A model generated the notes under the pieces. The model made no database searches. It worked only from the letters and a program-made list of their open reading frames with translations, and had not been told where the DNA came from. A DNA stretch of 60,552 bases from an uncultured virus (IMG/VR IMGVR_UViG_3300032893_000007). Lineage: Duplodnaviria; Heunggongvirae; Uroviricota; Caudoviricetes. Location: IMG/VR virus record IMGVR_UViG_3300032893_000007. One strand, given 5' to 3'. A program made the position numbers and the translations under genes. This document shows positions 346 to 45,712 of the stretch, piece by piece (within the stretch, counting starts at the first letter, position 1; each line of letters begins with the position of its first letter).

Positions 346-385
346 ACTTTTCTACCTTCTAAACAAGGTGTCAAGAATAAAAATC
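346..385 (-). promoter_or_regulatory. sigma70-like promoter, phage motif family
   Basis: Minus strand TTGACA (369-374) followed by ccttgttt; AT-rich upstream tract; weak -10. Confidence 0.55.
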
Positions 386-6042: not shown

Positions 6043-6060
6043 CATGCCTATCCGGTTGAC
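6043..6060. mobile_element. solitary terminal inverted-repeat end of a cassette element
   Basis: CATGCCTATCCGGTTGAC is identical to the left end of the 40022-40361 element and borders a lower-GC segment to ~6340; no partner end found. Confidence 0.7.
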
Positions 6061-6293
6061 GCCCATTTAGTTGGATCGATACCGTACCTGAGCAAATACG
6101 CCCGGCAAGCGTGACAACACCATGTAGGATCATCGGGCGAAATGATGCGACAAAGTTTGCCCGAACCGTTGCCAGTGCATGGTTGGTCAGCCAGCCACTC
6201 AACAAAATTCACAACAGCCTCGGGGTTGGCACACATTCGCTCAAACTCGTTTCGACGTAAATACTTTCCGTGCTGCAAAGCCCAGGAATCCAT
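6048..6293 (-). CDS. Cys-rich passenger protein of cassette remnant
   Basis: Lower-GC ORF (MDSWALQHG...CCHAC) whose TAG stop lies inside the IR. Confidence 0.55.
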   Translation of the reverse strand: MDSWALQHGKYLRRNEFERMCANPEAVVNFVEWLADQPCTGNGSGKLCRIISPDDPTWCCHACRAYLLRYGIDPTKWASTG

Positions 6294-6306
6294 GGCTTTT
6301 GCGCAT

Positions 6307-6813
6307 TCACGCGATGCCTTCCTTGAGGGCCGATAATTCAATCAAGACCTTGCAGCTCCGCTTGAGGTGGGCCGTCATGCTCCCCGCGGGACCTTTTTGG
6401 AGCTGCCGCATACCTTTCAGGTTCAACGGGGCGAAGAGGATCTCCACGATCAGTTCGGAGCCTTTCCAGCGTCGCTCTGCAGAAATCACGACATCGGTCT
6501 CTTCGAATACCTTCCTGGCGCTCGACTTGAACAGGAGCTCATCGCTCCAGGAGCAGACGACGAAGTCGTCCGAGGCGTGCATCCTGAGAACCTCGACACC
6601 CCAACTCTTCCACCGACTGAACACCCAGTAGGAACCAAGATCGATGACGTCGTAGCCGCTGCCGGGCAGCGCGCATAGTCGGACGCCAAGGTAGGCGTCG
6701 TATCCTCGCTTGGCGATGCTGTTCAATTTCCGCACGATGATTCGGCTGGTCTTCGCGGGAAGGGACGACAGAGTACGCGACGCCTCGGCGGAGTACTTGA
6801 CGAGATGATTCAT
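6307..6813 (-). CDS. RelE/ParE-fold-like N-terminal domain protein
   Basis: VKYSAEASRTLSSLP...IVRKLNSIA...LPGS...LGSYWV...VEVLRM fits the RelE pattern but lacks the usual YR catalytic residues. Confidence 0.5.
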   Translation of the reverse strand: MNHLVKYSAEASRTLSSLPAKTSRIIVRKLNSIAKRGYDAYLGVRLCALPGSGYDVIDLGSYWVFSRWKSWGVEVLRMHASDDFVVCSWSDELLFKSSARKVFEETDVVISAERRWKGSELIVEILFAPLNLKGMRQLQKGPAGSMTAHLKRSCKVLIELSALKEGIA

Positions 6814-7403
6814 GACGACCTTCCTGTCAGATCCAGGATGAGGGTGGTGACCCCGAGCTCGTCAGCGCACCGCTGGGCGGCCCATCCTAGTCCGGTGTAA
6901 TTCTCGCCGAGCGAGTCGAGCACGCAGAGGACGATCAGCTTCTCACTGCGCGTGTACGGGCGCACGCAGTCCGAGAGCCGAACCGACTCCGGGCCGCTGC
7001 GGCGCTCGACGTCGTCGTACTTCTCGGTCAGCGCGAGGCGGGCCGACTCGAAGAGCTTGGCCGACCACTCGACGTCGTCGTACTTCTCGGTCAGCGCGAG
7101 GCGGGCCGACTCGAAGAGCTTGGCCGACCACTCGGCTCGGCTCGCGTGGGGGTTGCAGGACTTGACCACGGCCAGGGCTACGTCGAGCAGGGAGCGCACG
7201 GAGCGGATCATCTTCCCCATCGCCTCGAGCAGCTCGCTCGTGTCCCGGTCGGGGGCCTTCAGCCATCCGCGGCCGCGCAGCGAGATCCTGCTGGCGTGGC
7301 TCCGTTCGGCGTAGCGGAACAGCGTGAGGTCGTCGAGCTCCTGCAGGTACTCCTCGTAGCTCGGATCTTCAGTCGTCTTGACGGTGCGAGTGCTGGCGTC
7401 CAT
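6810..7403 (-). CDS. hypothetical protein with internal 21-aa duplication
   Basis: GGAGG RBS before MDAST; EWSAKLFESARLALTEKYDDV present twice. Confidence 0.65.
   Translation of the reverse strand: MDASTRTVKTTEDPSYEEYLQELDDLTLFRYAERSHASRISLRGRGWLKAPDRDTSELLEAMGKMIRSVRSLLDVALAVVKSCNPHASRAEWSAKLFESARLALTEKYDDVEWSAKLFESARLALTEKYDDVERRSGPESVRLSDCVRPYTRSEKLIVLCVLDSLGENYTGLGWAAQRCADELGVTTLILDLTGRSS
7005..7134. repeat. perfect 63-bp tandem duplication
   Basis: 7005-7067 equals 7068-7130; in frame. Confidence 0.95.
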
Positions 7404-7581: not shown

Positions 7582-7622
7582 AGCATGGACCTCTCCGAAC
7601 CAAGTGTCAAGAATAAAAAATG
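7582..7622 (-). promoter_or_regulatory. sigma70-like promoter, phage motif family
   Basis: TTGACA(7605-7610)-cttggttcggagaggtc (17 bp)-CATGCT; T-tract upstream. Confidence 0.75.
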
Positions 7623-10927: not shown

Positions 10928-10966
10928 ATCTTCGCCCCGGCAGAACCAAGTGTCAACAAGGAAATT
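10928..10966 (-). promoter_or_regulatory. sigma70-like promoter, phage motif family
   Basis: TTGACA(10951-10956)-cttggttctgccggggc (17 bp)-GAAGAT. Confidence 0.65.
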
Positions 10967-37271: not shown

Positions 37272-37312
37272 ATTCTCGAACAATCCGAACCAAGTGTCAA
37301 GAATCAAAAATG
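37272..37312 (-). promoter_or_regulatory. sigma70-like promoter, phage motif family
   Basis: TTGACA(37295-37300)-cttggttcggattgttc (17 bp)-GAGAAT; 28/29 identical to 7594-7622. Confidence 0.8.
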
Positions 37313-38661: not shown

Positions 38662-39660
38662 TCAGCCGTCCTCTCGGAACGCCTGCTCGAGACCTCCCTC
38701 CTCGTCCTCGGCCTCGACCTCAGGCGCCGCGACCGACTGGTCGTCGCCGTCGTCGCGAGGCGAGCCACCCTCGACGTACTCCTCGACCGCGGAAGCTTGC
38801 GACTCCTTCGCCGCCTGCTCGTCGAGCATCTTCTCCTCGGCGAGCCGAGCCTCGTCGAGGACCAGCTTGCACACCAGCTTCTCCCCATCGGTCATCGACT
38901 CCCGCAGGAACTTAGCCATCGAGACGTCCTCCCGCGGATCCTTGAGCAGCCTGAGCTGCATCGCGATGTACTCCACGGCACCTCGTCGCAAGATCGTGCA
39001 GACGTCGCGACCGGCAGACTCGAACCTATGTTTGGTGATCCTGAGGGGCCACACGTCGTCGAGCGCTGAGTAGTAGCCGTGCAGCGACGCTCCCACGTGG
39101 TCGCGCAGGGGCAAAGGCCTGAAGGCAGAAGACCTCGAGTCCCGGCCGTCAGCGTATGCGCAAGCCGTGACGAGGTAGAGCCTCGCGACGCTACCCCGCA
39201 TCGTGTGGGCCGCGTAGAGCGGCTCCACGCACGACGACCAGGTCATAAGACCCTGCTCGCCGAGCGCTCGCATGACCGCGACCTCCTCGGACTCACCCGG
39301 CCCGACGTCGGCGCTCGGCAGGTCGCACATGCCGTCAACTCCGCCTCCGAGCACCACCAGGACCTCGTACGAGAGCGGCAGATCGGGGCGTGCCGACTGC
39401 CCGTCCGGAAGCGTGACGAGCCTCGGGACCATGACCTTGACCCGCTTGACAAGCGACCGAGTGGACGTCGGCACGAAGTCTCCCTGCATGCGCTTCCAGA
39501 TCCAGTAGGAGTGAACCGAGCAGGCCTCGCAGACCCCGTGCTCGGCCGACGGCGCGCACATCACCACCCGCTCAGTGTTCCCACAGAAGGAGCAGGCGAC
39601 CGACTCCCGAAACTCGTACTGCCATGCCGGCACCAGAGCCGCCTTGCTGGCGTCAGACAT
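38662..39660 (-). CDS. ClpX-type Zn finger plus degenerate Nudix-like domain, acidic tail
   Basis: CSFCG...VCEAC; DLPSADVGPGESEEVAVMRALGEQGL. Confidence 0.65.
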   Translation of the reverse strand: MSDASKAALVPAWQYEFRESVACSFCGNTERVVMCAPSAEHGVCEACSVHSYWIWKRMQGDFVPTSTRSLVKRVKVMVPRLVTLPDGQSARPDLPLSYEVLVVLGGGVDGMCDLPSADVGPGESEEVAVMRALGEQGLMTWSSCVEPLYAAHTMRGSVARLYLVTACAYADGRDSRSSAFRPLPLRDHVGASLHGYYSALDDVWPLRITKHRFESAGRDVCTILRRGAVEYIAMQLRLLKDPREDVSMAKFLRESMTDGEKLVCKLVLDEARLAEEKMLDEQAAKESQASAVEEYVEGGSPRDDGDDQSVAAPEVEAEDEEGGLEQAFREDG

Positions 39661-40006
39661 CGTCGTTCGCCCACGGACCACGAGAGCGTCCGCGACCTCG
39701 CCTGGGGGCATCTCCTCCCCTTCCCCGCTCACCTCGACGGTCGCGGTCCTGCTGGCGCTCGTTGGCCACGTCGACCACCAGGCAGCGTCCCTTGACCTCA
39801 TGGTCGACGAGCGCCACCCTGGCCACCTCGCAGTCCTGGTCGGAGTCGAAGTGGACGAAGCCGAAACCCCTCGACCGGTTACCGTCCACGCGATTGTAGA
39901 CCACCTCGGCCCGCGAAAAACGAATACCCAACGTCGCGAGCTCGTCTTCGAGATCGTCGTCGTTCACGGACCAGGGAAGATTACCAACGAACAGTTTTCT
40001 CGCCAT
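39653..40006 (-). CDS. RRM RNA-binding protein
   Basis: RNP2 KLFVGNL, RNP1 RGFGFVHF, RGG-rich tail. Confidence 0.92.
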   Translation of the reverse strand: MARKLFVGNLPWSVNDDDLEDELATLGIRFSRAEVVYNRVDGNRSRGFGFVHFDSDQDCEVARVALVDHEVKGRCLVVDVANERQQDRDRRGERGRGGDAPRRGRGRSRGPWANDDV

Positions 40007-40021
40007 CGTGTTCCCTCTACC

Positions 40022-40361
40022 CATGCCTATCCGGTTGACACCCCTAAAGGGTAAAAACCTTGGTTTTTGGTCGCTGCGCTTGGACGTGTGATACAATGGC
40101 AAACAAGGAATCGAAATCGCCAGGATTGACAGATCCGTCTGGTGCCAAACGACCTAATCGTTTTCCTTTGCTGGCTCCTCGCTCGGCTGTACCGTCCGTG
40201 TAAATCAGTGTAATCGCTCCACCCTTCGCTAGTTGTTGGGCTTCTGCTACGCCTGTCATCATCGACTCGATTTTAGGCGCCATTGTGTGAATTACCATTG
40301 GAGTTTTTCTCATTGTTCAATTCCTATCGTTTTTGTGGAGTGTGTGAACCGGATAGGCATG
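40022..40361. mobile_element. 340-bp non-autonomous insertion cassette with terminal IRs and 8-bp target duplication
   Basis: IRs CATGCCTATCCGGTT(G/C)ACAC, 19/20 match; CCTCTACC at 40014-40021 and 40362-40369; lower-GC interior. Confidence 0.9.
40044..40313 (-). CDS. passenger hypothetical protein of the cassette
   Basis: 89-aa ORF filling the element; AGGA RBS; no DDE motifs. Confidence 0.65.
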   Translation of the reverse strand: MRKTPMVIHTMAPKIESMMTGVAEAQQLAKGGAITLIYTDGTAERGASKGKRLGRLAPDGSVNPGDFDSLFAIVSHVQAQRPKTKVFTL

Positions 40362-40641
40362 CCTCTACCTATGTGAAGGTTGCTCCCGTATACCGATCTT
40401 GCCAGACTCTACTCCAGATCGTCCTCGTCTGCGGACGGTAACGGTCGTCTCCGCTCGCCGGGAACCGGCGGGCGCCTCGAGACTCTGACGTCCTCGTCCA
40501 GATCTGCCGCGGGAGGCGCCATGCCCGACACGCCTCGCATGTGCTTCTTCACCCTACTCGCGAGGACGTACCTCTCGGAGTCGTGGCTCGCCTCGGGTCG
40601 CACTACCCGGTAGGGTCCCACCCTGATCTTCTTGACGGAAC

Positions 40642-41142
40642 TCACGCCGACTCCTCCGACAACCGCACGACGTGACTCTTTCGCACGATGAACGGAGTCC
40701 TCCTCCCGCGCTGCACGAGGATCTCCCTCGACGACAGGAGGTCCACCACCACGAGCTCATCGAGCAGGTTAGGATCTGACCTGAGCACCTTCGCGTAAGC
40801 ATCCTCGTACCGCCCCCTGTGCTCCGTCGCCACCTTGACCCGATCTCCCTTGGAGGGTCTCCACGGGAGCATCCGCCTCGGTGGCACGAAGTCGTCGCGC
40901 TCGAGCGCATCCACGAGGCCGAGCAGCTCGACGACCCTCTCCTTCACACCCGTCACGGCCCGCAGGGCAGCCTCGACCCGACCGTCGCCGGACGACCTCC
41001 ACACCTCGAGCCTGTCCTGACAAAGCACCGCGTGGCGCTCGATCTTGTCGACGTTGCGCCTCAGGCGGATCACCGGAGTAGACCTCCGGTAGGCACTCTT
41101 GGATACTCCGCTCTTGGATGCTCCTCGTGACCGACGTCGCAC
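40642..41142 (-). CDS. basic hypothetical protein
   Basis: Helical N-half, SH3-like GDRVKV C-half. Confidence 0.6.
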   Translation of the reverse strand: MRRRSRGASKSGVSKSAYRRSTPVIRLRRNVDKIERHAVLCQDRLEVWRSSGDGRVEAALRAVTGVKERVVELLGLVDALERDDFVPPRRMLPWRPSKGDRVKVATEHRGRYEDAYAKVLRSDPNLLDELVVVDLLSSREILVQRGRRTPFIVRKSHVVRLSEESA

Positions 41143-41144
41143 GG

Positions 41145-41426
41145 TTACCCCCCTACCTTCTTCTCCTCGACGCCTACCGCCCTCACGAGCTCTTCCAGCC
41201 GCTCGACCGCCCACGCCCGCTTCTTCACCATGCCTACCTTGAGCACCTCGTAGTAGGCCCGCGCCAGCGTCTCGAGCGTGATGTCATCCTGAGTAAGATC
41301 GCACGTCACGACTACCTTATTTCCCTCGGCGACGATCTCGGCGAGCTCGACCATCGAGATGTAGCTGGCCCGATCCTCGTCGTACAATTTCCGGTTGCCG
41401 TACTTGCGCACGCTGATCGTCTTCAT
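41145..41426 (-). CDS. second PhaR-type DNA-binding domain protein
   Basis: VRKYGNRKLYD...SYISM.EL..IV.EG...DIT.ETLA. Confidence 0.85.
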   Translation of the reverse strand: MKTISVRKYGNRKLYDEDRASYISMVELAEIVAEGNKVVVTCDLTQDDITLETLARAYYEVLKVGMVKKRAWAVERLEELVRAVGVEEKKVGG

Positions 41427-41459
41427 GACTGTCCTTCCGCAACATTACTCCGGGAACAA

Positions 41460-41921
41460 CTAACCAGGACCCCTGCGCAGCTCAACCTCTTCCTGCACGT
41501 CACACGCGAGGGTACGCATGTCCCTGATAAGCTTCCGCGTGTGATCCGTATGACCCTGAAACTGGTTGAGCCTCCCCGCCATGCCGTGCAGCATGGGCAC
41601 GAGCCGCAGGAGCTCGTTCATGATGGCGGCGTCTCCCGGGGAAATCCGCACCTCGGCTCGCACCCCGTGACGACCCGCCTGGTAGACCTCCGGCACCCTC
41701 GGGAGGTTCAAGACGACGTCGGGAACCTCCGCTATCGCCTGCTCGACGTCCGGCGGTAGCACCCTCCGAACACCTATCCTGCTGCACGCCGAACAGATCG
41801 CCTGCCCCTGCCCCACCGACTGGTGACACGTCATGCACGCCAGGTCTTGTCCTCCGCACACCGGACAAGATACGCTCCCTAGGGCGAGCTCCTGACGACA
41901 CGGCCTGCAGTAGAGGCTCAC
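41460..41921 (-). CDS. double Zn-ribbon protein
   Basis: CRPC, CPVC, CMTC, CSAC. Confidence 0.65.
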   Translation of the reverse strand: MSLYCRPCRQELALGSVSCPVCGGQDLACMTCHQSVGQGQAICSACSRIGVRRVLPPDVEQAIAEVPDVVLNLPRVPEVYQAGRHGVRAEVRISPGDAAIMNELLRLVPMLHGMAGRLNQFQGHTDHTRKLIRDMRTLACDVQEEVELRRGPG

Positions 41922-45672: not shown

Positions 45673-45712
45673 ATGTTAAGCAAAACCGAACAAAGTGTCA
45701 AGTATCAAAAAG
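45673..45712 (-). promoter_or_regulatory. sigma70-like promoter, phage motif family
   Basis: TTGACA(45696-45701)-ctttgttcggttttgct (17 bp)-TAACAT. Confidence 0.8.

Follow-up and report, generated by a model that had tools for sequence, protein, structure and literature searches.

A transposase-less cassette with IS1595-like ends and a conserved 89-aa gene, probably mobile, in the genome of an uncultured virus

We analysed a 60,552-nt stretch of DNA (the window) from an uncultured virus (IMG/VR record IMGVR_UViG_3300032893_000007) in which a 340-bp element at 40022-40361 is bounded by inverted repeats. The repeats (CATGCCTATCCGGTTGACAC / CATGCCTATCCGGTTCACAC) are identical at 19 of 20 bases with no match beyond 20 bp, and they occupy 40022..40041 (+ strand) and, by end comparison, 40342..40361 (– strand). 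An exact 8-bp direct repeat, CCTCTACC, borders the element as two copies of a target-site duplication (40014..40021 and, by repeat comparison, 40362..40369). By a rough estimate, a 19/20 inverted pair within 2 kb together with an exact 8-bp direct repeat has a chance expectation of 8e-7 in the window. The GC content of the element is 0.485, as compared to 0.645 and 0.638 in the flanks and ~0.64 in the genome. Inside lies one passenger gene of 89 amino acids (aa) on the – strand (40044..40313), which belongs to an unnamed small protein family, so that the repeat at 40022 is on its 3' side and the repeat at 40342 on its 5' side. The gene is preceded by a conserved sub-terminal leader (40314..40341, – strand) with a Shine-Dalgarno-like GATAGGA at 40322-40328. 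The downstream resident gene (39653..40006, – strand) encodes a 117-aa RRM RNA-binding protein (Pfam RRM_1, E 3e-12); it shares the strand of the passenger, and its start at 40006 lies 37 nt past the passenger stop codon. On the – strand, the duplication copy at 40014..40021 contains the GAGG of this gene's likely ribosome-binding site; because the GAGG lies in the duplicated octamer, the insertion copied the ribosome-binding site and left the RRM gene intact. Upstream, and on the same strand as the passenger, is a 78-aa open reading frame (ORF; 40409..40645, – strand) with no PHROGs family. An earlier note on this DNA had described the 340-bp segment, its repeats and exact duplication, its AT-richer interior, its position just upstream of the RRM gene start and an 89-aa ORF that fills it without a transposase motif, and each of these points was reproduced. 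These data confirm that a cassette with inverted repeats, a target duplication and one ORF is a real structure.

We found homologues of the passenger gene at nine loci (L262-L270; four of them represent one site and two another), in which the gene lies inside the same ends and similarity halts at those ends. Five complete copies of 340-341 bp occupy different sites, each with its own flanks; the 8-bp duplication is clean at four of the five, whereas at L265 an additional CATG is present on one of the two sides. A sixth copy retains one end only and has a different flank again. Contigs of the wetland runs X1-X3 contain more diverged copies with other flanks, and also elements with both ends and other interiors. 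These data support the idea that the cassette moves as a unit. An empty-site allele, which the earlier note proposed looking for, was not found in our searches, which included the contigs of runs X1-X3; the five-site distribution stands in for such an allele but is not its equal.

The same distribution bears on the alternative that the cassettes are dead-end products, each formed a single time when a passenger-carrying insertion sequence (IS) loses its transposase in place, and then inherited, not moved. All 19 viral elements that have these ends and encode a transposase (described below) have an additional ~350 nt or more, containing small ORFs, before the transposase, the L012 passenger has a 63%-identical homologue in cassette L031, and a parent with the 89-aa gene could have seeded each site. 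However, the copies at the five sites share their 340-341-bp length and their boundaries despite up to saturated synonymous divergence, so five independent identical deletions are unlikely, and no transposase was found near the gene in the nine homologue loci. We consider in-place deletion improbable and favor a cassette that travels without its own transposase.

The passenger ORF covers 79% of the element, and an equally long ORF was present in 2 of 200 interior shuffles. We found that it is under purifying selection: as compared to the viral copy L039, dS is 2.0 and dN is 0.116 (dN/dS ~0.06), with 48 of 66 differences at third codon positions, and pN/pS is 0.09-0.22 in 14 of 15 pairs among six passenger copies, the exception being a near-identical pair. 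The protein has 29 profile matches, of which ~20 are small full-length homologues, and AlphaFold gives a confident predicted fold (mean pLDDT 93) without a clear structural match. No match was found to transposases or to any Pfam, PHROGs, NCBIfam or PADLOC family. Its role is most likely non-enzymatic, as a small binding protein of benefit to the virus; our best guess, although a doubtful one, is that it binds nucleic acid in a KTSC-like manner. The many short non-coding derivatives with these ends in cellular genomes (see below), together with the lack of a named family for the passenger, would suit an ordinary miniature inverted-repeat transposable element (MITE) or deleted IS in which the ORF is a chance frame or transposase remnant, but the low dN/dS, the full-length homologues, the confident fold and the dissimilarity to transposases make this very improbable. 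The earlier note's view of a transposase-less cassette with a real passenger is supported by the selection on the gene, which is not a fragment of a transposase, and by its presence at five sites with different flanks.

We used transposases from other elements with the same ends to assign the cassette to an IS family. All seven that were tested match PF12762 and PF12760 (Zn-ribbon + DDE_Tnp_IS1595), NF033547 is above cut-off in all three tested, and the 19 viral transposase elements all match IS1595-type queries by tblastn. Among named elements, the nearest is ISAcr1 from Acidiphilium cryptum, which carries an IS1595-like annotation. The repeat at 40022..40041 and the ISAcr1 left end agree at 18 of 20 bases, both elements have an 8-bp duplication, the ISAcr1 reading frame begins ~48 nt from the end as the cassette gene does, and the ISAcr1 transposase is 64% identical to that of the viral element L048. 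In contrast to the window element, which has an unrelated 89-aa protein and no transposase, ISAcr1 carries a transposase only and has a promoter-like TTGAC..TAG in its left end. ISAcr1-like elements may belong to the ISSod11 group of IS1595. The available part of PMC5737581 names that group, there without end sequences, and the part of PMC8101967 consulted gives IS1595 elements 8-bp duplications and a transposase with a zinc finger and DDE domain. The window element has the 8-bp duplication, and its ends, with CG at positions 11-12 and TGA or TCA at 15-17, are common to elements that encode an IS1595 transposase. Neither the element nor the contig that holds it has a transposase gene of this family, as an autonomous IS or transporter IS would; the element fits a mobile insertion cassette (MIC), which has no transposase of its own, and differs from a MITE in having a functional coding sequence. 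The earlier note had called the ends IS231 (IS4 family), and we give this almost no credence: the ends do begin with CAT like those of IS231 and ISH8, and IS231 is the founding example of such cassettes (PMC3129680, PMC4337579, in the parts available), but the internal signature of IS231 ends (CAT-------AA--TAA, with 10-12-bp duplications and nearly confined to Firmicutes, according to the accessible text of PMC2266710) is absent, the duplication is 8 bp, and the partner elements carry IS1595 rather than IS4-type DDE/YREK transposases.

Taken together, these data indicate, with a probability that we put at about 0.88, that the window element is a transposase-less mobile insertion cassette with ISAcr1-like IS1595 ends and one conserved 89-aa gene, likely inserted by a related transposase in trans. 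The window is part of a single 122,552-bp contig (G000) that looks like a virus of prokaryotes because its PHROGs matches (34 proteins tested) include a DNA polymerase, an endolysin, a DNA methyltransferase and a thymidylate kinase. When we searched this contig by tblastn with three family transposases, none was found (best E 0.30), and mobilisation in trans is therefore the likely route of movement. In run X1, an autonomous relative is represented on a 56,190-bp contig by its two ends and by transposase pieces in co-linear order. A candidate helper is thereby placed in the community, although not within one cell; X1 may be the source of this DNA. We propose that the DDE transposase of such a relative, in a co-infecting virus or the host, would bind the 20-bp ends, that the cassette likely moves by way of a DNA circle, an intermediate that has been reported for MTnSag1 of the IS1595 family, and that it would insert by an 8-bp staggered cut with the family preference G-W-W-N-N-W-W-C. 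The surviving copy would have fallen on the RRM gene's ribosome-binding site, which the duplication kept intact, and the cassette end would supply the Shine-Dalgarno sequence for the passenger.

The same contig contains other members of the family. A second complete cassette lies outside the window (G000:C1:55310-55526, equivalent to L273:13310-13526); it is 217 bp long, has an exact duplication, GGTCCTTT, and holds a 56-aa Cys-rich ORF. One of its ends is 88% identical over 51 bp to that of the window cassette and its interior is unrelated. Its duplication contains the likely ribosome-binding site of the next gene. Within the window, a solo family end at 6043..6068 (+ strand) is identical in its first 26 nt to an end of this second cassette, and we found no partner end and no target duplication for it. 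A 97-aa ORF with no PHROGs family (6048..6341, – strand) has its stop codon inside the solo end and is likely, judging from this arrangement, the passenger of a cassette that lost its other end. The placement at a ribosome-binding site is seen for this one-ended relic as well. An AT-rich region at G000:C1:20600-21300 has short pieces that resemble the cassette's sub-terminal leader and do not score with the end profile; these are possibly decayed elements.

To survey the wider family, we scanned genomes with a degenerate end motif, which gave at least 133 loci in IMG/VR (~160 estimated) and at least 128 in GTDB genomes (~390 estimated). Long flanks were taken for ~80 loci of each set, and 136 ends remained unpaired, mostly for lack of flank; the counts that follow are among the loci listed. 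There are 63 distinct viral elements with both ends, and the target duplication is 8 bp in 50 of them. Nineteen encode a transposase and are 1414-2150 bp long, and an unpaired viral locus (L059) resembles a plain IS. The other 44 lack a transposase and are 213-1191 bp long; their duplications are exact 8-bp repeats in 35, have one mismatch in two and are missing in seven. One ORF fills at least 60% of the element in 38 of the 44, and in 34 it beats shuffles at p<=0.05. Three near-duplicate pairs and one homologous pair leave ~40 different passengers. A Pfam scan of 43 passenger ORFs besides the window's passenger and its L039 homologue gave few matches: Lar, C5 methylase and phage zinc finger above cut-off, and MazG-like, N6 methylase, deoxyribosyltransferase and PAPS reductase below it.

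In cellular genomes, the 48 paired elements include ten plain ISs of 1064-1180 bp and two longer transposase elements, and the remainder are mostly short and non-coding (34 up to 1000 bp, median 170 bp, 7 of 34 ORF-filled). This contrast between viral and cellular sets is open to bias, since the exact pattern is biased towards one end type, metagenome-assembled contigs break at multicopy ISs and the counts are not per base. A tree of 35 transposases, from which the broken L004 and short remnants were left out, shows five changes between viral and cellular labels as compared to 11.8 for shuffles, and has one supported clade of 12 viral sequences and one cellular sequence; the viral transposases are clustered but do not have a single origin. 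We searched cultured phages and the family was absent from them. One Myxococcales metagenome-assembled genome carries many 131-163-bp non-coding derivatives with these ends (L135, L136, L154, L155, L173, L175, L196, L213), so that the family has expanded there in the form of MITEs. Near both ends of L009, L029, L058, L064, L077, L149 and L166 lies a sub-terminal motif around CTAGATGT, which recurs in one subfamily and in ISAcr1-like ISs and is absent from the window cassette; it may resemble an NrdR operator.

At two metagenome loci, cassettes are found in tandem. At L264 (81-429), the cassette is preceded, 8 bp upstream, by another copy of its end, and the 8 bp between them are the same octamer. 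At L266:893-1513 and L267:1585-2205, a one-ended unit, a window-type cassette and a third cassette of 264 bp, whose 62-aa gene is a different one, are arranged head to tail, and an identical octamer separates the units. We infer that tandem cassettes arise by re-use of the duplicated target. An exact tandem-junction pattern gave no matches in IMG/VR, so arrays are rare. A further 544-bp cassette with two ORFs lies ~1 kb from the L266/L267 arrays. At L262:3291-3755, an ORF begins at the ATG of the cassette's terminal CATG and runs into an HNH-like flank, and from its sequence this cassette appears to have split a gene.

We compared how cassettes and transposase elements are equipped for expression. 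The left end of all 19 viral transposase elements has TTGACA, 17 nt and TA, with a –10-like TAnnnT in 13 of them, and by consensus these elements seem to carry a built-in inward promoter. At the same place TAnnnT is found in only 2 of 41 cassettes (Fisher p 4e-7); the 41 are 39 viral cassettes plus the two of G000, after two duplicates and three of unclear orientation were dropped and five orientations were set by hand. Many cassettes have AGGA or GGAG ahead of a start codon 34-63 nt from the end, the slot in which plain cellular relatives begin their transposase and in which the window passenger starts (~49 nt from the end). One shared 48-nt leader stands ahead of unrelated genes in the window cassette, the second G000 cassette, L006, L036, L127 and the third unit of L266. 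Eleven of the 41 cassettes (9 of 39 when those of G000 are left out) have a Shine-Dalgarno motif and start codon past their 3' end on the same strand, as compared to 0 of 41 on the cassettes' other side and 0 of 19 transposase elements. A codon classifier, which was right on 15 of 19 control pieces, called flanks co-oriented with the passenger in 24 of 31 cases upstream and 25 of 32 downstream, and transposase elements show the same downstream lean (12 of 15). The 69 distinct duplications favour G-W-W-N-N-W-W-C and the window site fits this poorly; placement at ribosome-binding sites is therefore more likely to reflect survival of harmless insertions than targeting. We found no promoter consensus in 39600-41600. 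Transcripts of the passenger likely originate from the resident viral operon.

The components of this system are known, and bacteria are already known to have such cassettes. A MIC consists of a passenger gene enclosed by inverted repeats related to those of an IS; it has no transposase and is activated in trans (PMC4337579, PMC3129680, in the parts available). MIC231 of Bacillus cereus (IS231) and the TnXax1 MICs of Xanthomonas share with the window element a passenger between inverted repeats, the lack of a transposase and a target duplication, and MICs of Bacillus and Xanthomonas also show solo ends and tandem clusters (PMC4337579, same portion). They differ in transposase family (IS4 for MIC231 or Tn3 for TnXax1, as compared to IS1595 here) and in size (3-19 kb for non-TALE Xanthomonas MICs in the text available, as compared to 213-1191 bp), and unlike them the elements described here sit in viral contigs with ~40 different passengers among 44 elements. 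IS1595 transporter ISs (MTnSag1/tISSag10, tISCpe8) have been described with 8-bp duplications and a circular intermediate (PMC5704250, PMC9330008, as far as the accessible sections go). They have IS1595 ends and passenger genes, and our 19 viral transposase elements are of this build. In those sections they carry their own transposase and resistance genes and come from Firmicutes, whereas the window element is non-autonomous and its family is mainly in uncultured viruses with phage-type passengers. Integron gene cassettes offer an analogy only: they too are single, apparently promoterless genes with their own ribosome-binding site, drawn from a varied pool and occasionally arranged head to tail. 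The elements here differ in having terminal inverted repeats and 8-bp duplications, in an inferred movement by DDE transposase, in the lack of an evident attI platform and in the rarity of arrays.

The IS1595-based single-gene cassettes thus form a large family concentrated in uncultured viruses that is apparently undescribed; a literature search, with subscription journals outside its reach, found no paper on this IS1595 family in viruses. The defining paper of the IS1595 family is said to be Siguier et al. 2009, which may already list IS1595 cassettes. The portion of a 2024 MITE review covered by a term search does not have the word phage (PMC10969869). We suggest tentatively, as a possibility that we think somewhat more apt to fail than to hold, that single-gene cassettes form an integron-like pool common to environmental viruses and run by virus-adapted IS1595 transposases, in which the end gives the ribosome-binding site and cassettes enter operons ahead of resident genes, stack via the same 8-bp target and become ordinary genes after end loss. 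It is largely unexplained how phages come by the many small accessory genes that are specific to their lineages, and if true, this pool would be an undescribed general route for gaining them. One vehicle carries ~40 passengers (Lar, MazG-like, methyltransferase-like, deoxyribosyltransferase-like and many orphans), and at least one passenger has been kept under selection through saturated synonymous divergence while changing sites. Each insertion carries its ends and a duplicated target as a mark by which acquisitions can be counted and dated, and acquired genes can be harvested directly with the 20-bp end motif. If 20-bp ends allow the cassettes to move in trans, and with little polar effect, they would also make a compact gene-delivery tool.

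Three further features of the window stand apart from the cassette. The RRM protein (39653-40006) is virus-encoded and has an Arg/Gly-rich tail, and a pattern search of IMG/VR found no close relative for it. An AT-rich intergenic motif around GTGTCAAG has five copies in the window (356-384, 7592-7620, 10938-10966, 37282-37310 and 45683-45711); its – strand reads TTGACA, and it may be a recurring viral promoter. At 7005-7130, a 209-aa ORF contains a perfect tandem duplication of 63 nt (21 codons).
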